Shown here one piece after another: positions 2,016-24,594 of a stretch of DNA of 64,000 nt (position 1 is its first letter; each line of letters opens with the position of its first letter). Under the pieces are notes generated by a model that did no database searches, was not told the DNA's origin, and was given only the letters and a program-made list of their open reading frames with translations. Source of the DNA: Escherichia coli (GTDB lineage Bacteria > Pseudomonadota > Gammaproteobacteria > Enterobacterales > Enterobacteriaceae); NCBI RefSeq assembly GCF_050920415.1, contig NZ_CP169309.1; one strand, written 5' to 3'. Position numbers and translations under genes: made by a program.

Positions 2016-2278
2016 CGCACTCTATTAGCTTCAGTCTTAGCCTCCTTCTTATGAACTTAACAAGGCACCCGACATAACTTCCTGTCGGGTGTTTCGTCTT
2101 CATCATCTTCCCGTGCGAAGTAAGAGCTTAAATCCTGGCTTACGAGGTATGCGTCAGGGCATTAGCAATACTCTTGATTATCAATAGCATAACCATAACC
2201 ACTGAAAATGAAATATTTCTTTATATTTCATATTGTTAAATGATACTTAAATAAATTTCATCAGTAAATCATTGCCAT

Positions 2279-15917: not shown

Positions 15918-18317
15918 ATGAAGCTAACCGATGCGGATAATGCCGCCGATGGCATTTTTTTCCCCGCCCTTGAGCAAAATATGATGGGCGCGGTGTTAAT
16001 TAACGAAAATGATGAAGTGATGTTTTTCAACCCCGCCGCAGAGAAACTCTGGGGGTACAAACGCGAAGAAGTCATTGGCAAAAACATTGATATGCTGATT
16101 CCGCGAGATTTGCGTCCCGCGCATCCTGAATACATCCGTCACAACCGTGAAGGCGGTAAAGCGCGCGTCGAGGGGATGAGTCGGGAGCTGCAGCTGGAGA
16201 AAAAAGACGGCAGTAAAATCTGGACCCGTTTTGCGCTATCGAAAGTGAGCGCCGAGGGTAAAATTTATTACCTGGCGCTGGTACGGGATGCCAGCGTAGA
16301 AATGGCGCAAAAAGAACAGACCCGACAATTGATTATTGCTGTTGACCATCTCGACCGACCGGTGATTGTCCTCGATCCGGAACGCCATATTGTGCAGTGC
16401 AATCGCGCATTTACCGAAATGTTTGGTTACTGCATTAGCGAAGCCAGCGGTATGCAGCCCGATACACTCCTGAACATTCCAGAATTCCCTGCTGATAACC
16501 GCATTCGTTTACAACAGTTGCTATGGAAAACCGCCCGCGATCAGGACGAATTTCTGCTGTTGACGCGCACCGGTGAAAAAATCTGGATTAAAGCCTCTAT
16601 CAGCCCGGTCTATGATGTGCTCGCGCATCTGCAGAACCTGGTAATGACTTTCTCGGATATCACCGAAGAACGGCAAATCCGCCAGCTTGAAGGCAATATT
16701 CTCGCCGCCATGTGCAGCAGCCCGCCATTTCATGAAATGGGGGAAATCATTTGTCGTAACATCGAATCTGTTCTCAACGAATCGCATGTTTCGCTGTTCG
16801 CGCTGCGCAACGGGATGCCGATACACTGGGCGTCATCTTCGCACGGTACAGAAGTTCAAAATGCGCAAAGCTGGTCAGCGACCATTCGTCAGCGTGACGG
16901 CGCACCGGCGGGGATCCTGCAAATTAAAACCTCGTCAGGAGCAGAAACCAGCGCCTTTATCGAACGCGTGGCAGATATCAGCCAGCATATGGCCGCGCTG
17001 GCGCTGGAACAGGAAAAAAGCCGTCAGCATATTGAACAACTCATCCAATTTGATCCGATGACCGGTCTGCCAAATCGCAATAACCTGCACAATTACCTCG
17101 ATGACCTGGTCGACAAAGCCGTCTCTCCGGTGGTCTATCTCATCGGTGTTGACCATATTCAGGATGTGATTGATAGCCTTGGCTATGCGTGGGCCGATCA
17201 GGCATTGCTGGAAGTGGTCAATCGCTTTCGTGAAAAACTCAAACCGGATCAGTATCTCTGTCGTATCGAAGGTACGCAGTTTGTCCTCGTGAGCCTGGAA
17301 AACGACGTCAGCAACATTACCCAAATCGCCGATGAGCTACGGAATGTGGTCAGCAAGCCGATAATGATTGACGATAAACCATTCCCGCTCACCTTGAGCA
17401 TTGGCATCAGCTACGACGTGGGTAAAAACCGCGATTACCTGCTCTCCACTGCCCATAACGCGATGGATTATATTCGCAAGAATGGCGGTAACGGCTGGCA
17501 GTTCTTCAGCCCGGTGATGAACGAAATGGTGAAAGAACGATTGATATTAGGCGCAGCGCTGAAAGATGCGATTAGCAATAACCAACTGAAACTGGTTTAC
17601 CAACCGCAAATCTTCGCAGAAACGGGTGAACTGTATGGTATCGAAGCCCTTGCTCGCTGGCACGATCCTCTGCATGGTCATGTGCCCCCTTCACGGTTTA
17701 TTCCTCTCGCAGAAGAGATTGGCGAAATCGAAAATATTGGGCGCTGGGTCATCGCGGAAGCTTGCCGTCAGTTAGCAGAATGGCGTAGCCAGAATATTCA
17801 TATTCCAGCGTTATCCGTTAACTTGTCTGCGCTGCACTTCCGCAGTAATCAGCTTCCTAATCAGGTGTCTGATGCAATGCAAGTCTGGGGCATTGACGGC
17901 CACCAGCTAACGGTGGAAATCACCGAAAGCATGATGATGGAACACGATACCGAAATTTTTAAGCGCATCCAGATCCTGCGCGATATGGGCGTGGGTTTAT
18001 CGGTAGATGATTTTGGTACGGGTTTTTCCGGGTTATCCCGCTTAGTCAGTCTTCCGGTAACGGAAATCAAAATTGACAAAAGTTTTGTTGATCGTTGTCT
18101 GACTGAAAAACGCATCCTTGCCTTACTTGAAGCTATTACCAGCATTGGGCAAAGCCTCAATTTAACCGTCGTAGCGGAAGGCGTCGAAACCAAAGAGCAA
18201 TTTGAGATGCTACGCAAGATTCACTGTCGCGTTATTCAGGGATATTTCTTTTCCCGCCCCCTGCCCGCCGAAGAAATTCCAGGCTGGATGAGTAGCGTGT
18301 TACCGCAGAAAATCTGA
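15918..18317 (+). CDS. dosP: Heme-regulated c-di-GMP phosphodiesterase (PAS-GGDEF-EAL)
   Basis: 799-aa product starting MKLTDADNAADGIFF; EAL domain motifs at C-terminus; RBS GAGG before ATG 15918. Confidence 0.95.
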   Translation: MKLTDADNAADGIFFPALEQNMMGAVLINENDEVMFFNPAAEKLWGYKREEVIGKNIDMLIPRDLRPAHPEYIRHNREGGKARVEGMSRELQLEKKDGSKIWTRFALSKVSAEGKIYYLALVRDASVEMAQKEQTRQLIIAVDHLDRPVIVLDPERHIVQCNRAFTEMFGYCISEASGMQPDTLLNIPEFPADNRIRLQQLLWKTARDQDEFLLLTRTGEKIWIKASISPVYDVLAHLQNLVMTFSDITEERQIRQLEGNILAAMCSSPPFHEMGEIICRNIESVLNESHVSLFALRNGMPIHWASSSHGTEVQNAQSWSATIRQRDGAPAGILQIKTSSGAETSAFIERVADISQHMAALALEQEKSRQHIEQLIQFDPMTGLPNRNNLHNYLDDLVDKAVSPVVYLIGVDHIQDVIDSLGYAWADQALLEVVNRFREKLKPDQYLCRIEGTQFVLVSLENDVSNITQIADELRNVVSKPIMIDDKPFPLTLSIGISYDVGKNRDYLLSTAHNAMDYIRKNGGNGWQFFSPVMNEMVKERLILGAALKDAISNNQLKLVYQPQIFAETGELYGIEALARWHDPLHGHVPPSRFIPLAEEIGEIENIGRWVIAEACRQLAEWRSQNIHIPALSVNLSALHFRSNQLPNQVSDAMQVWGIDGHQLTVEITESMMMEHDTEIFKRIQILRDMGVGLSVDDFGTGFSGLSRLVSLPVTEIKIDKSFVDRCLTEKRILALLEAITSIGQSLNLTVVAEGVETKEQFEMLRKIHCRVIQGYFFSRPLPAEEIPGWMSSVLPQKI

Positions 18318-18330
18318 CAAATCCCTCTCG

Positions 18331-18348
18331 CCCGCACTCGCGGGTTTT
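18331..18348 (+). terminator. Weak hairpin with T-run after dosP
   Basis: CCCGC-ACTC-GCGGG followed by TTTT; short stem. Confidence 0.35.
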
Positions 18349-18514
18349 CATTTAACGTGACACTGTCACTTAAATACTGTGATTTCAGCTACGATTCCGG
18401 GAGATTCCTTCCTTAACTTCCCCTCTTGCACCAAAACTGCACTACGCTGCACAAATGTTGATCAAAAGTTAAAAAATATAACTTTAAGCCAGCATTCTGG
18501 CGCTTATCCCGGCA

Positions 18515-18531
18515 TGGCATGAGATCTGCAT
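18515..18531 (+). promoter_or_regulatory. Candidate sigma-54 (-24/-12) promoter upstream of ddpX
   Basis: TGGCAT-N5-CTGCAT with correct GG-N10-GC spacing, about 45 bp upstream of the ddpX ATG; the ddp operon is reported to be nitrogen (NtrC) regulated. Confidence 0.5.
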
Positions 18532-18574
18532 AAGCGGAAAGCGCAGCAATTTTTGTCTTATACAGGAACCGTTT

Positions 18575-19156
18575 ATGTCGGATACCACCGAACTGGTTGA
18601 TTTAGCCGTGATCTTCCCTGATCTGGAGATCGAATTGAAATACGCCTGCGCTGATAACATCACAGGTAAAGCTATTTATCAGCAAGCGCGTTGTCTGTTA
18701 CACAAGGATGCGATTACCGCGCTGGCGAAAAGTATCAGTATCGCCCAGCTGTCAGGCTTACAACTGGTGATTTACGATGCGTATCGCCCACAACAAGCAC
18801 AGGCGATGTTGTGGCAAACCTGCCCAGACCCGCAATATGTCGTTGATGTGGCGGTCGGTTCTAATCACAGCCGTGGCACCGCGATCGACCTGACGCTTCG
18901 TGATGAGCACGGGAACATCCTCGATATGGGCGCAGAGTTCGATGAAATGCACGAACGTTCCCATGCTTACCATCCTTCCGTCCCGCCCGCTGCTCAGCGC
19001 AATCGCCTGTTGCTGAATGCGATTATGACTGGCGGTGGCTTTGTCGGTATCCCGAGCGAATGGTGGCACTTCGAATTACCCCAGGCAGCGAGTTACCCGC
19101 TACTCGCTGATCAATTCACCTGTTTTATATCCCCTGGCACACAGCACGCCAGTTAA
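18575..19156 (+). CDS. ddpX: D-Ala-D-Ala dipeptidase (VanX homolog)
   Basis: 193-aa ORF, first gene of the ddp cluster. Confidence 0.95.
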   Translation: MSDTTELVDLAVIFPDLEIELKYACADNITGKAIYQQARCLLHKDAITALAKSISIAQLSGLQLVIYDAYRPQQAQAMLWQTCPDPQYVVDVAVGSNHSRGTAIDLTLRDEHGNILDMGAEFDEMHERSHAYHPSVPPAAQRNRLLLNAIMTGGGFVGIPSEWWHFELPQAASYPLLADQFTCFISPGTQHAS

Positions 19157-19169
19157 TCAGGAAACTGTT

Positions 19170-20720
19170 ATGAAGAGATCGATTTCGTTTCGTCCTACAT
19201 TGCTCGCGATCGTCCTTGCCACAACAATGCCGGTTGCGCACGCCGCCCTACCGAAAGATATGCTGGTGATCGGTAAAGCTGCCGACCCACAAACCCTCGA
19301 CCCGGCGGTAACAATTGATAATAACGACTGGACAGTGACCTACCCGTCTTATCAGCGACTGGTTCAGTACAAAACGGACGGTGATAAAGGCTCAACAGAC
19401 GTTGAAGGCGATCTGGCGAGTAGCTGGAAAGCGTCTGACGATCAAAAAGAGTGGACGTTCACCCTGAAGGACAATGCTAAATTTGCCGATGGCACACCCG
19501 TCACTGCCGAAGCAGTAAAACTCTCTTTTGAGCGGTTACTAAAAATCGGTCAGGGGCCAGCAGAAGCATTTCCCAAAGATTTAAAGATTGATGCTCCCGA
19601 CGAACATACGGTGAGGTTTACCCTTAGCCAGCCATTCGCACCGTTCCTCTACACGCTGGCGAATGACGGTGCATCCATTATCAATCCGGCGGTCTTAAAA
19701 GAACATGCGGCCGATGATGCCCGTGGTTTCCTCGCGCAAAATACCGCTGGCTCCGGACCGTTTATGCTGAAAAGCTGGCAAAAAGGTCAGCAATTAGTTC
19801 TGGTGCCAAATCCGCATTACCCCGGCAATAAACCGAACTTCAAACGGGTATCGGTAAAAATTATCGGTGAAAGTGCCTCCCGTCGCCTGCAGCTCTCCCG
19901 TGGCGACATTGACATTGCCGATGCGCTGCCGGTGGATCAACTCAACGCCCTGAAGCAGGAAAACAAAGTCAACGTGGCAGAGTATCCGTCACTGCGCGTC
20001 ACCTATCTGTATCTCAATAACAGCAAAGCGCCACTTAATCAGGCGGATCTGCGTCGGGCCATTTCCTGGTCTACCGATTATCAGGGTATGGTTAACGGCA
20101 TTCTGAGTGGTAACGGAAAACAAATGCGCGGCCCGATTCCGGAAGGCATGTGGGGATACGATGCGACGGCAATGCAATACAACCATGACGAAACGAAAGC
20201 CAAAGCCGAATGGGATAAAGTGACGAGCAAACCCACCAGCCTGACGTTTCTCTACTCCGATAACGACCCGAACTGGGAACCTATTGCTCTGGCAACACAA
20301 TCCAGCCTCAACAAGCTGGGCATCAATGTGAAGCTGGAAAAGCTGGCGAACGCCACCATGCGCGACAGAGTGGGTAAAGGTGATTACGACATCGCGATTG
20401 GCAACTGGAGTCCGGATTTTGCCGACCCGTATATGTTTATGAATTACTGGTTTGAGTCAGACAAAAAAGGTCTGCCGGGTAACCGCTCGTTCTATGAAAA
20501 CAGTGAGGTCGATAAGCTACTGCGCAATGCGCTAGCGACCACCGACCAGACGCAGCGTACCCGGGACTACCAGCAGGCACAGAAAATCGTCATTGATGAC
20601 GCTGCTTATGTGTATCTGTTCCAGAAAAACTACCAACTGGCGATGAACAAAGAGGTGAAAGGCTTTGTGTTCAATCCCATGCTGGAACAGGTCTTCAATA
20701 TCAATACCATGAGTAAATAA
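19170..20720 (+). CDS. ddpA: Periplasmic dipeptide-binding protein of ABC transporter
   Basis: 516-aa product from ATG 19170 (MKRSISFRPTLLAIVLATTMPVAHA signal peptide); the ORF track's 561-aa version is an upstream extension. Confidence 0.95.
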   Translation: MKRSISFRPTLLAIVLATTMPVAHAALPKDMLVIGKAADPQTLDPAVTIDNNDWTVTYPSYQRLVQYKTDGDKGSTDVEGDLASSWKASDDQKEWTFTLKDNAKFADGTPVTAEAVKLSFERLLKIGQGPAEAFPKDLKIDAPDEHTVRFTLSQPFAPFLYTLANDGASIINPAVLKEHAADDARGFLAQNTAGSGPFMLKSWQKGQQLVLVPNPHYPGNKPNFKRVSVKIIGESASRRLQLSRGDIDIADALPVDQLNALKQENKVNVAEYPSLRVTYLYLNNSKAPLNQADLRRAISWSTDYQGMVNGILSGNGKQMRGPIPEGMWGYDATAMQYNHDETKAKAEWDKVTSKPTSLTFLYSDNDPNWEPIALATQSSLNKLGINVKLEKLANATMRDRVGKGDYDIAIGNWSPDFADPYMFMNYWFESDKKGLPGNRSFYENSEVDKLLRNALATTDQTQRTRDYQQAQKIVIDDAAYVYLFQKNYQLAMNKEVKGFVFNPMLEQVFNINTMSK

Positions 20721-20721
20721 C

Positions 20722-21744
20722 GTGACCTTCTGGAGTATTTTACGCCAACGCTGCTGGGGGCTGGTGCTCGTGGTGGCGGGCGTCTGCGTGATTACGTTTA
20801 TTATCTCGCACCTGATCCCCGGCGACCCGGCGCGGTTACTGGCGGGTGACCGCGCCAGCGATGCTATCGTGGATAATATTCGCCAGCAACTGGGACTGGA
20901 CCAGCCACTGTACGTACAGTTTTACCGCTACGTCAGCGACCTGTTTCAGGGTGACCTGGGAACATCCATTCGTACCGGGCGTCCGGTGCTGGAAGAGTTG
21001 CGCATATTTTTCCCGGCGACGCTGGAACTGGCATTTTGCGCCCTGCTGCTGGCACTCCTGGTTGGTATCCCGCTGGGCATACTCTCTGCAGTCTGGCGAA
21101 ATCGCTGGCTGGATCATCTGGTGCGAATAATGGCCATTACCGGAATCTCCACGCCTGCGTTCTGGCTTGGGCTGGGCGTCATTGTGCTGTTTTATGGTCA
21201 TCTGCAAATTCTTCCCGGCGGCGGAAGGCTTGATGACTGGCTGGATCCACCAACGCACGTTACCGGCTTTTATCTGCTCGATGCGCTGCTTGAAGGCAAC
21301 GGTGAAGTCTTCTTCAATGCGCTACAACATCTCATCTTACCGGCATTAACGCTGGCGTTCGTTCACCTGGGGATTGTCGCTCGCCAGATCCGCTCAGCTA
21401 TGCTGGAACAATTGAGTGAAGACTACATTCGTACCGCCCGGGCCAGCGGCTTGCCCGGCTGGTATATCGTTTTATGTTATGCGCTACCCAATGCGTTGAT
21501 CCCCTCAATTACCGTATTGGGGCTGGCGCTGGGCGATTTGTTGTATGGCGCAGTGCTCACCGAAACCGTTTTTGCCTGGCCCGGAATGGGTGCATGGGTA
21601 GTAACATCAATACAGGCGCTCGACTTCCCGGCAGTGATGGGCTTTGCCGTCGTGGTTTCATTTGCTTATGTGCTGGTCAACCTGGTGGTGGATTTGCTCT
21701 ATTTGTGGATTGATCCGCGTATCGGACGTGGAGGTGATGAATGA
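20722..21744 (+). CDS. ddpB: Dipeptide ABC transporter permease
   Basis: 340-aa polytopic membrane protein; overlaps ddpC start (translational coupling). Confidence 0.95.
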   Translation: MTFWSILRQRCWGLVLVVAGVCVITFIISHLIPGDPARLLAGDRASDAIVDNIRQQLGLDQPLYVQFYRYVSDLFQGDLGTSIRTGRPVLEELRIFFPATLELAFCALLLALLVGIPLGILSAVWRNRWLDHLVRIMAITGISTPAFWLGLGVIVLFYGHLQILPGGGRLDDWLDPPTHVTGFYLLDALLEGNGEVFFNALQHLILPALTLAFVHLGIVARQIRSAMLEQLSEDYIRTARASGLPGWYIVLCYALPNALIPSITVLGLALGDLLYGAVLTETVFAWPGMGAWVVTSIQALDFPAVMGFAVVVSFAYVLVNLVVDLLYLWIDPRIGRGGDE

Positions 21745-22637
21745 TGCTAAGCGAGGAAACGTCCGTCGTACGCCCACCAAAACAAACGCGATTTAACGGT
21801 GCAAAACTGGTATGGATGCTGAAAGGCAGTCCGCTCACCGTGACCGGCGCAGTCATCATTGTATTAATGCTACTGATGATGATTTTTTCACCGTGGCTGG
21901 CGACGCATGATCCCAACGCCATTGATTTAACTGCCCGCCTTTTGCCGCCTTCTGCGGCGCACTGGTTTGGCACCGATGAAGTGGGACGCGATCTGTTTAG
22001 CCGCGTACTGGTCGGCAGTCAGCAATCAATTCTCGCCGGATTAGTGGTGGTCGCCATTGCGGGTATGATGGGTTCGCTACTCGGGTGTCTATCCGGTGTG
22101 CTTGGCGGACGCGCAGACGCGATCATCATGCGCATCATGGACATTATGCTGTCGATTCCTTCGCTGGTGCTGACAATGGCGCTGGCTGCCGCACTTGGAC
22201 CGAGCTTGTTTAACGCCATGCTGGCGATTGCTATCGTGCGAATCCCGTTTTATGTGCGCCTGGCGCGGGGGCAAACATTAGTTGTCCGCCAGTACACTTT
22301 CGTTCAGGCGGCGAAAACCTTTGGTGCGTCACGCTGGCATCTGATCAACTGGCATATTTTACGTAACTCCCTGCCGCCGCTGATTGTGCAGGCATCGCTG
22401 GATATTGGTAGCGCGATTTTAATGGCCGCCACGTTGGGATTTATTGGCCTGGGTGCTCAACAACCGAGTGCTGAATGGGGGGCGATGGTGGCGAATGGTC
22501 GCAACTATGTGCTCGATCAATGGTGGTATTGCGCATTTCCGGGGGCAGCGATTTTGCTTACCGCCGTCGGGTTCAATCTCTTTGGTGATGGTATTCGCGA
22601 TCTGCTTGACCCGAAAGCAGGAGGAAAGCAGTCATGA
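21741..22637 (+). CDS. ddpC: Dipeptide ABC transporter permease
   Basis: 298-aa membrane protein; 4-bp overlaps with ddpB and ddpD. Confidence 0.95.
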   Translation: MMLSEETSVVRPPKQTRFNGAKLVWMLKGSPLTVTGAVIIVLMLLMMIFSPWLATHDPNAIDLTARLLPPSAAHWFGTDEVGRDLFSRVLVGSQQSILAGLVVVAIAGMMGSLLGCLSGVLGGRADAIIMRIMDIMLSIPSLVLTMALAAALGPSLFNAMLAIAIVRIPFYVRLARGQTLVVRQYTFVQAAKTFGASRWHLINWHILRNSLPPLIVQASLDIGSAILMAATLGFIGLGAQQPSAEWGAMVANGRNYVLDQWWYCAFPGAAILLTAVGFNLFGDGIRDLLDPKAGGKQS

Positions 22638-23620
22638 CCCAACCCGTTCTGGACATTCAACAGCTGCATTTGAGTTTCTCCGGTTTTAACGGCGACGTTC
22701 ACGCGCTCAACAATGTGTCATTGAAAATCAACCGCGGTGAAATTGTCGGTCTGGTGGGAGAATCCGGCTCGGGTAAATCAGTCACTGCAATGTTGATTAT
22801 GCGTCTGTTACCGACGGGCAGTTATTGCGTACATCGGGGACATATTTCACTGCTGGGAGAAGATGCTCTTAACGCTCGGGAAAAACAGCTTCGTCAGTGG
22901 CGCGGAGCACGAGTGGCGATGATCTTTCAGGAACCGATGACCGCCCTAAATCCGACACGTCGAATAGGTCTTCAGATGATGGACGTGATCCGCCATCATC
23001 AACTAATAAGTCGTCGGGAAGCCAGAGCTAAAGCGATTGCCCTGCTGGAAGAGATGCAAATCCCGGATGCCGTGGAAGTTATGTCGCGCTATCCGTTTGA
23101 GCTTTCAGGTGGTATGCGCCAGCGGGTAATGATTGCGCTGGCATTCTCCTGCGAGCCGCAATTGATTATTGCCGACGAACCGACTACGGCGCTGGACGTC
23201 ACGGTACAGTTGCAGGTACTGCGTCTGCTTAAACATAAAGCCCGCGCCAGTGGAACTGCGGTACTGTTCATCAGCCATGATATGGCCGTGGTGTCGCAAC
23301 TGTGCGATAGCGTTTACGTGATGTATGCCGGAAGCATGATCGAGAGCGGCATGACGGCAGACGTTATCCATCATCCCCGGCATCCGTATACCATTGGTTT
23401 GCTGCAATGCGCACCGGAACATGGAATACCACGCCAGCCATTACCCGCCATTCCAGGGACGGTACCAAACCTCACCCATTTGCCTGACGGCTGCGCTTTT
23501 CGCGATCGTTGCTATGCGGCAGGTACACAGTGTGAAAACGTCCCGGCGCTGACAGCGTGTGGTGACAACAACCACCGCTGCGCCTGTTGGTATCCTCAGC
23601 AGGAGGTCATTAGTGTCTGA
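22634..23620 (+). CDS. ddpD: Dipeptide ABC transporter ATP-binding protein
   Basis: 328 aa, Walker A GESGSGKS, signature LSGGMRQR. Confidence 0.95.
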   Translation: MTQPVLDIQQLHLSFSGFNGDVHALNNVSLKINRGEIVGLVGESGSGKSVTAMLIMRLLPTGSYCVHRGHISLLGEDALNAREKQLRQWRGARVAMIFQEPMTALNPTRRIGLQMMDVIRHHQLISRREARAKAIALLEEMQIPDAVEVMSRYPFELSGGMRQRVMIALAFSCEPQLIIADEPTTALDVTVQLQVLRLLKHKARASGTAVLFISHDMAVVSQLCDSVYVMYAGSMIESGMTADVIHHPRHPYTIGLLQCAPEHGIPRQPLPAIPGTVPNLTHLPDGCAFRDRCYAAGTQCENVPALTACGDNNHRCACWYPQQEVISV

Positions 23621-24539
23621 CACGTTATTAACGTTACGCGACGTCCATATCAATTTCCCGGCCCGAAAAAACTGGCTTGGTAAAACTACGGAACATGTTC
23701 ATGCCATCAATGGTATTGATTTACAGATCCGTCGTGGTGAAACCTTAGGGATCGTCGGTGAGTCAGGCTGCGGCAAAAGCACCCTCGCACAGCTTTTAAT
23801 GGGTATGCTGCAACCGAGCCACGGGCAGTACATCCGTTCAGGATCACAACGCATTATGCAGATGGTGTTTCAGGACCCGCTCTCTTCGCTTAATCCGCGC
23901 TTACCGGTGTGGCGCATCATCACGGAACCGCTCTGGATTGCTAAGCGTAGTAGTGAACAACAGCGGCGAGCGTTGGCAGAGGAGCTGGCTGTGCAGGTGG
24001 GTATTCGTCCGGAGTATCTCGACCGCTTGCCTCATGCGTTCTCAGGCGGGCAGCGGCAACGTATCGCCATTGCCAGAGCACTCTCTTCGCAGCCTGACGT
24101 GATTGTGCTTGATGAGCCCACCTCGGCGCTGGATATCTCCGTCCAGGCGCAGATCCTCAATTTACTGGTAACGCTACAGGAAAATCGCGAGCTGACTTAT
24201 GTGCTGATTTCACACAATGTCTCGGTGATTCGTCATATGAGCGATCGGGTAGCGGTGATGTATCTCGGGCAGATTGTAGAACTGGGCGACGCGCAGCAGG
24301 TGCTCTCTACTCCGGCACATCCATACACCCGATTATTGCTGGATTCCCTGCCCGCCATTGATAAACCGCTGGAGGAAGAATGGGCATTGCGTAAAACGGA
24401 ACTACCAGGAAACCGCACGTTGCCACAAGGCTGTTTTTTCCGTGAACGTTGCCCTCTGGCAACCCACGGATGTGAAGTCCGGCAATCATTAACAATAAGG
24501 GAGGACGGACGTGAGATCCGGTGCTGTCGGGCGCTGTAG
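23613..24539 (+). CDS. ddpF: Dipeptide ABC transporter ATP-binding protein
   Basis: 308-aa product from GTG 23613 preceded by AGGAGG; Walker A GESGCGKST, signature FSGGQRQR. Confidence 0.9.
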   Translation: MSDTLLTLRDVHINFPARKNWLGKTTEHVHAINGIDLQIRRGETLGIVGESGCGKSTLAQLLMGMLQPSHGQYIRSGSQRIMQMVFQDPLSSLNPRLPVWRIITEPLWIAKRSSEQQRRALAEELAVQVGIRPEYLDRLPHAFSGGQRQRIAIARALSSQPDVIVLDEPTSALDISVQAQILNLLVTLQENRELTYVLISHNVSVIRHMSDRVAVMYLGQIVELGDAQQVLSTPAHPYTRLLLDSLPAIDKPLEEEWALRKTELPGNRTLPQGCFFRERCPLATHGCEVRQSLTIREDGREIRCCRAL

Positions 24540-24594
24540 AGACGCTAACAACGCATCAGGCAATCACGCGCCTGACGCGTCATCCGGCAACGCT

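Follow-up and report, generated by a model that had tools for sequence, protein, structure and literature searches.

The sigma-54 promoter of the ddpXABCDF operon in Escherichia coli and its counterparts in other Enterobacterales

The element TGGCAT-N5-CTGCAT upstream of ddpX is, with high confidence, the NtrC-activated sigma-54 (RpoN) promoter that serves the ddpXABCDF operon when nitrogen is limiting. It lies in a stretch of E. coli DNA of 64,000 nucleotides, the whole of which was analysed and is here called the window. The function of the operon we take to be the scavenging of D-Ala-D-Ala as a nitrogen source. The promoter (ddpXp) is already known from ChIP-seq tables, RegulonDB and EcoCyc, and in itself adds nothing new; its original descriptions are said to be those of Zimmer in 2000 (PNAS) and of Reitzer and Schneider in 2001 (MMBR). 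It serves as a positive control, being a true sigma-54 promoter that was recognised and correctly attributed from sequence alone. The new point comes from comparing genomes: E. coli appears to be without a repressor gene that related bacteria have behind the same promoter. The features discussed are collected in Table 1.

Table 1. Features of the dosP-ddpX region and the ddp operon (positions in the window, except for the last row)
Feature	Position	Strand	Basis
Intrinsic terminator of dosP: GC-rich hairpin with a T-run behind it, immediately downstream of the dosP stop (18317)	18327-18345	+	
ddp cassette (enhancer, sigma-54 promoter, ddpXABCDF), 6157 bp	18394-24550	+	Gained or lost as a whole across E. 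coli strains
Candidate NtrC enhancer (UAS): three TGCAC half-sites, 10-11 bp apart	18427-18464	+	Conservation, NtrC-consensus scan
AT-rich inverted repeat AAAGTTA-N7-TAACTTT, between enhancer and promoter	18465-18485	.	Sequence
17-mer as given in the ChIP-seq paper (PMC4591121), ATGGCATGAGATCTGCA	18514-18530		
Sigma-54 -24/-12 element TGGCAT-N5-CTGCAT	18515-18531	+	Sequence, weight matrix, ChIP-seq identity, conservation
Predicted transcription start	18540-18542	+	About 12 nt after the GC by sigma-54 promoter geometry; leader about 34 nt
Shine-Dalgarno sequence AGGA, 7 nt before the ddpX ATG	18564-18567	+	Sequence
ddpX, D-alanyl-D-alanine dipeptidase, 193 aa, first gene of the operon	18575-19156	+	ORF, Pfam, NCBIfam, RefSeq
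ddpABCDF, ABC transporter genes co-transcribed with ddpX	19170-24539	+	Tightly packed or overlapping ORFs; ddpXABCDF operon in the literature
Putative operator copies in a related locus (L004)	2064-2079 and 2093-2108		

The element lies in the intergenic region between dosP and ddpX of E. coli; RefSeq annotates dosP on its upstream side and ddpX-ddpA on its downstream side, ddpA following ddpX after 14 nt. The region is 100% identical to NZ_CP169399.1 and approximately 98.8% identical over 401 bp to another genome. The identity of the downstream gene as ddpX, proposed in the first-pass annotation, is confirmed by matches of its product to Pfam Peptidase_M15 (E 1.8e-78) and to the NCBIfam D-alanyl-D-alanine dipeptidase equivalog PRK10178 (330 bits; cutoff 176), as well as by RefSeq. 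The terminator of dosP insulates the ddp promoter from read-through. The sequence CAGGAA is kept at the junction upstream of ddpX in other genera. A search of the leader for structured RNA returned no Rfam family, the sole match being a meaningless snoRNA (E = 0.28).

The sequence TGGCATGAGATCTGCAT occurs once in the window. Its GG (18516-18517) and GC (18528-18529) are separated by 10 bases, the canonical -24/-12 spacing, so that the earlier reading of an exactly spaced -24/-12 consensus match agrees with the letters on the plus strand; the distance to ddpX, which had been put at about 45 bp, measures 43 nt from the end of the element to the ATG. The pattern TGGCAY-N5-YTGCW has one match in the window against 0.39 expected, and at least one match is found in 31% of shuffles. 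A weight matrix was built from the 41 other sigma-54 ChIP-seq sites that Bonocora et al. (2015, Table 1) give as intergenic and sense-oriented, the ddpX site being excluded (leave-one-out). The ddpX site scores 16.07 bits, ranking first among some 128,000 positions on both strands of the window (runner-up 12.99), and falls near the median of the verified sites on the same matrix (16.29; range 8.9-21.8 bits). A score at least this high is expected approximately 0.5 times per 64 kb, both strands included, and motif strength by itself is not significant at the scale of the window. Because the motif score alone is within chance for 64 kb, the case rests on placement, conservation and published experiments. 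As to placement, the element is sense-oriented and intergenic, between the dosP terminator and the ddpX start codon; by a rough estimate, 0.02 sites placed like this are expected.

The 17-mer ATGGCATGAGATCTGCA is site OS16 of the in vivo sigma-54 ChIP-seq analysis of E. coli MG1655, on the ddpX strand and 34 bp upstream of the gene; it had already been predicted before that study, at the time of which EcoCyc classed the ddpX promoter as "predicted" and not "confirmed" (PMC4591121). The length predicted for the leader, about 34 nt, fits the "distance 34" that Table 1 of the same paper lists for ddpX (PMC4591121). Start-site mapping for this promoter was not found in a literature search. In nitrogen-starved cells, a ddpXABCDF peak is among those listed from NtrC ChIP-seq (PMC4066584). 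In Shimada et al. (2021), the ddpX site was found by gSELEX with the RpoN holoenzyme, gel shifts were obtained at ddpX with NtrC, with the RpoN holoenzyme and with both, ddpX mRNA rose 104.5-fold upon nitrogen depletion, and ddpX is counted among the known NtrC-dependent RpoN promoters; explicit ddpX values for the rpoN and ntrC mutants were not found in the text (PMC8743547). Together with the NtrC peak, these data bear out the earlier placing of the ddp operon in the NtrC regulon.

The expression of the operon is also reported to be RpoS-dependent, as the first-pass annotation had stated: the dependence of ddpXA is 39- and 31-fold in stationary-phase EDL933, and the table that reports this lists astCADBE and yeaGH, likewise NtrC/sigma-54 operons, with RpoS, RpoN and NtrC as major regulators (PMC2907692). 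Such strong RpoS dependence is not accounted for by the sigma-54 promoter; either it is indirect or a weak promoter was missed by the scans. The latter would be a second, sigma-S/sigma-70 promoter in the dosP-ddpX region, driving the RpoS-dependent expression while the sigma-54 promoter acts only under nitrogen limitation. The two would be additive, not exclusive. We regard this second promoter as unlikely. A consensus scan of 18200-18700 returned no promoter of the sigma-70 or sigma-S type upstream of ddpX. The -10-like hexamers visible by eye, TATAAC (18477-18482) and TATACA (18559-18564), are without the final T, and the second is also too near the ATG. Furthermore, gSELEX with the RpoD holoenzyme found only an internal ddpA/ddpB promoter and none upstream of ddpX (PMC3946193).

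For comparison between species, one genome per species was scanned, giving 80 loci with DdpX relatives from the Enterobacterales, and a -24/-12 motif of 12-19 bits precedes the first gene of the operon in approximately 68 of them. Across 29 promoter regions from about 12 genera the sigma-54 element keeps its TGGCA and TGC without exception, the mean column identity being 44%. Outside Escherichia the motif is located 925-1056 bp upstream of ddpX, ahead of an extra first gene. That 18515-18531 might be a chance or non-productive sigma-54 binding site from which ddpX is not transcribed is suggested by the frequency at which such scores are expected and by the caution of the ChIP-seq authors that sigma-54 binding is no proof of promoter activity and that many sites may never yield transcription (PMC4591121). 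This reading is highly improbable, however, for a sense-oriented, intergenic site 34 nt from the start codon that is conserved with an upstream enhancer over those genera, and for which the above induction by nitrogen depletion and the formation in vitro of ternary complexes with NtrC are published (PMC8743547).

Stand-alone ddpX-like genes were also encountered, some with an N-terminal extension; in the two loci checked (L036 and L045) no ddpA follows. Sigma-54-like motifs of 13.7-15.7 bits are present in L036 (2945-2961), L045 (2846-2862) and L046 (2829-2845). The distance from motif to ATG is 40 nt in L036 and, to the ATG of the extended ORF, 46 nt in L045, and in L046 the motif is 156 nt before the start of the match, with no nearer start codon identified. 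These loci hint that D-Ala-D-Ala dipeptidases are under sigma-54 control in other settings as well.

The candidate NtrC enhancer consists of half-sites starting at 18427, 18438 and 18448, the sole cluster in the window of three TGCAC sequences within 30 bp. They form overlapping 17-mers, TGCACCAAAACTGCACT (18427-18443), TGCACTACGCTGCACAA (18438-18454) and TGCACAAATGTTGATCA (18448-18464), centred at approximately -106, -95 and -85 from the predicted start. NtrC sites had been anticipated 80-150 bp upstream of the promoter; a conserved cluster is indeed found at these distances, but its single sites are weak, with 4-5 mismatches of 14 to the NtrC consensus TGCACCAnnnTGGTGCA. The block TGCACCAAAAcTGmACTACGCTGCACAAATGTTGATCA, which makes up the enhancer in the window, differs hardly at all among Escherichia, Citrobacter, Enterobacter, Lelliottia, Franconibacter and Mixta. 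More distant genera possess near-perfect NtrC palindromes at the homologous position, e.g., TGCACCTTCTTTGTGCA and TGCACCGATTTTGTGCA, and Raoultella, Serratia and Pantoea have palindromes there with 2-3 mismatches.

A scan of the region 30-200 bp upstream of the sigma-54 motif found a best match to TGCACCAnnnTGGTGCA with at most 4 mismatches in 56 of 70 loci, compared with 6.9% of 170-bp windows drawn at random from these loci, and with at most 3 mismatches in 23 of 70, as against 1.5%. At the former threshold NtrC-like sites are enriched approximately 12-fold over background, in loci that are related and do not represent independent events. From this conservation we infer the exact NtrC sites to lie within 18427-18464. 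The published NtrC ChIP peak bin (PMC4066584) corresponds to approximately 18494-18574, that is, over the promoter, with the candidate enhancer 40-100 bp further upstream; the offset is within the resolution of ChIP, which does not pinpoint the sites.

The candidate enhancer is overlapped by the third-best matrix match in the window, CTTGCACCAAAACTGCA (18425-18441; 12.8 bits), and a real or additional sigma-54 promoter at this position, which would account for the two or three shifted RpoN-holoenzyme bands on the ddpX probe, can be given hardly any credence, as it has TG where the -24 element needs an essential GG, it overlaps conserved NtrC half-sites (TGCAC resembles both sigma-54 half-elements by chance), distant genera have an NtrC palindrome and no -24/-12 element there, and the ChIP-seq motif call is 18514-18530 instead (PMC4591121).

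The distance between enhancer and promoter varies. NtrC site 2 (18456-18516 being compared in the window) is 59-60 bp upstream of the GG in Escherichia versus 70-71 bp in Citrobacter and Enterobacter, a difference of 11 bp or one helical turn. Over all genera the distances are 60, 71, 95, 103, 108, 117 and 127 bp, with the helical phase matched only in part. In Huaxiibacter (L037) a 10-bp tandem duplication of CTGCACTACG occurs inside the enhancer. The AT-rich inverted repeat between enhancer and promoter may serve as a bendable spacer or bind a protein. Arms of the form GTTAA...TTAAC are found again, at varying distances from each other, in Citrobacter and Enterobacter, and the core of the repeat resembles the GTTA...TAAC of the TGTTA-N6-TAACA palindrome described below. 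An IHF site was also sought between enhancer and promoter; only a match to WATCAANNNNTTR with 2 mismatches was found (18460-18472), which is uninformative given 599 such matches in the window.

Returning to the NtrC-activated sigma-54 promoter, we envisage the following course of events. RNA polymerase containing sigma-54, whose binding is established by the published ChIP-seq, would sit as a closed complex on the GG and GC of the element. Phosphorylated NtrC, for which binding to the region is published and the individual sites are those proposed here, would assemble on the TGCAC cluster approximately 85-106 bp upstream of the start. By analogy with the general sigma-54 mechanism, NtrC may then loop out the AT-rich spacer, contact the polymerase and open the promoter with ATP. 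Transcription is predicted to begin at about 18541, yielding a 34-nt leader with the AGGA ribosome binding site, and the mRNA would cover ddpX and ddpABCDF, encoding the D-Ala-D-Ala dipeptidase DdpX and the dipeptide importer DdpABCDF.

Within E. coli, 4274 of the 5426 complete genomes carry the 181-bp region 18400-18580, and 4103 of 4275 records match it with an identity of 99% or more; for a stretch of 401 bp with the flanks included, the 99% level is attained by only 185 records. The whole ddp cassette is absent from approximately 21% of complete E. coli genomes. In a B2-type strain (APEC O2:K1; L081 4145-4213) dosP is followed directly by osmC. Since 69 bp stand in that strain for 18394-24550, the enhancer, promoter and ddpXABCDF behave as a single cassette, the left edge of which is 33 bp before the first NtrC half-site. 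In one E. coli record, NZ_CM176323.1, only 18455-18580 matches, starting inside the enhancer, and dosC is annotated beside ddpX; this arrangement suggests a deletion that removed dosP and NtrC site 1.

The extra first gene found outside Escherichia encodes a protein of 284-288 aa, which profile searches assign to the RpiR/MurR family on the basis of an HTH_6 domain and a weak SIS domain. It heads the ddp operon in Citrobacter, Enterobacter, Pantoea, Serratia, Brenneria, Raoultella, Rahnella and others (loci L003-L080), and in two loci the sigma-54 motif is 57-58 nt before its ATG (L004 2046-2986, L016 2061-2988). An assignment to SapR, a regulator of Burkholderia, was discarded, the NCBIfam scores of 374-400 bits being below the cutoff of 500 and denoting similarity at the level of the family only. 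Of 66 checked loci that have the RpiR-like gene, 61 show a perfect TGTTA-N6-TAACA downstream of the -12 element, its arms conserved and its spacer free. The start of the palindrome is 0-2 nt from the end of the -12 element (17 nt in Serratia), and most of the 61 loci possess a second, imperfect copy (TGACA-N6-TAACA) 29 bp downstream, over the ribosome binding site. The perfect palindrome is found neither in 412 kb of background nor in 18300-18700 of the window. The palindrome probably serves the RpiR-like regulator as its operator and is most simply read as marking that protein as an autorepressor. A literature search found no paper tying a D-Ala-D-Ala dipeptidase operon to an RpiR regulator.

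None of the complete E. coli genomes contains a match to the Citrobacter RpiR-like gene, and in the window no such gene stands between promoter and ddpX (18532-18574). The last 28 bp before the ddpX ATG (approximately 18547-18574) align with the 3'-end of the Citrobacter RpiR-like gene and its junction with ddpX. Most probably this arrangement arose through a deletion by which about 0.9 kb was lost and the ancestral promoter came to adjoin ddpX; as the alignments are short, the exact end-points of the deletion are uncertain. We lean, by a small degree, towards regarding the Escherichia ddp promoter as a simplified, deletion-derived form of an ancestral Enterobacterales control region, in which some 0.9 kb with the regulator and both operators has been lost and nitrogen status is the sole gate of DdpX. 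The ancestral regulator presumably bound the palindrome at the start site and the second site over the ribosome binding site. A bare sigma-54 promoter fused to ddpX would therefore leave a potentially harmful D-Ala-D-Ala dipeptidase gated by nitrogen alone. Loss of the RpiR-type regulator and its operator, both kept by most relatives, could explain differences between species in the timing of D-Ala-D-Ala scavenging. The comparative by-products of this analysis, modestly useful in our view, are thus the placing of the NtrC enhancer, the retention of the promoter across Enterobacterales and the apparent loss of regulator and operator.

Among the closest counterparts of the promoter are those of Citrobacter, Enterobacter, Pantoea, Serratia and other genera, where the enhancer block and -24/-12 element are homologous to those of E. 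coli, the 38-bp enhancer being almost identical in Citrobacter and Enterobacter; these genera possess the RpiR/MurR gene and the operator palindromes, whereas E. coli is without all of these. In comparison with ddpXp (OS16) of E. coli K-12, the window, which is from another strain, displays the same ATGGCATGAGATCTGCA, the same dosP and ddpX-ddpA neighbours and the same 34-nt distance, with no difference in the promoter. The -24/-12 architecture with an upstream NtrC enhancer is common to ddpXp and the NtrC-activated E. coli promoters glnAp2, glnHp2, astCp, argTp, yeaGp and nacp. The -24 half of the ddpX element, ATGGCATGAGA (18514-18524), is at least nearly identical to that of yeaG (ATGGCATGAGAGTTGCT) and close to that of argT (ATGGCATAAGACCTGCA), a promoter that we take to be NtrC-regulated. 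The yeaGH operon is an NtrC target (PMC4066584, PMC2907692). The E. coli ddp enhancer differs from those of these promoters in being made up of three TGCAC half-sites that face the same side of the helix, in place of good 17-bp palindromes, and in lying rather close to the promoter, with centres at -85 to -106.
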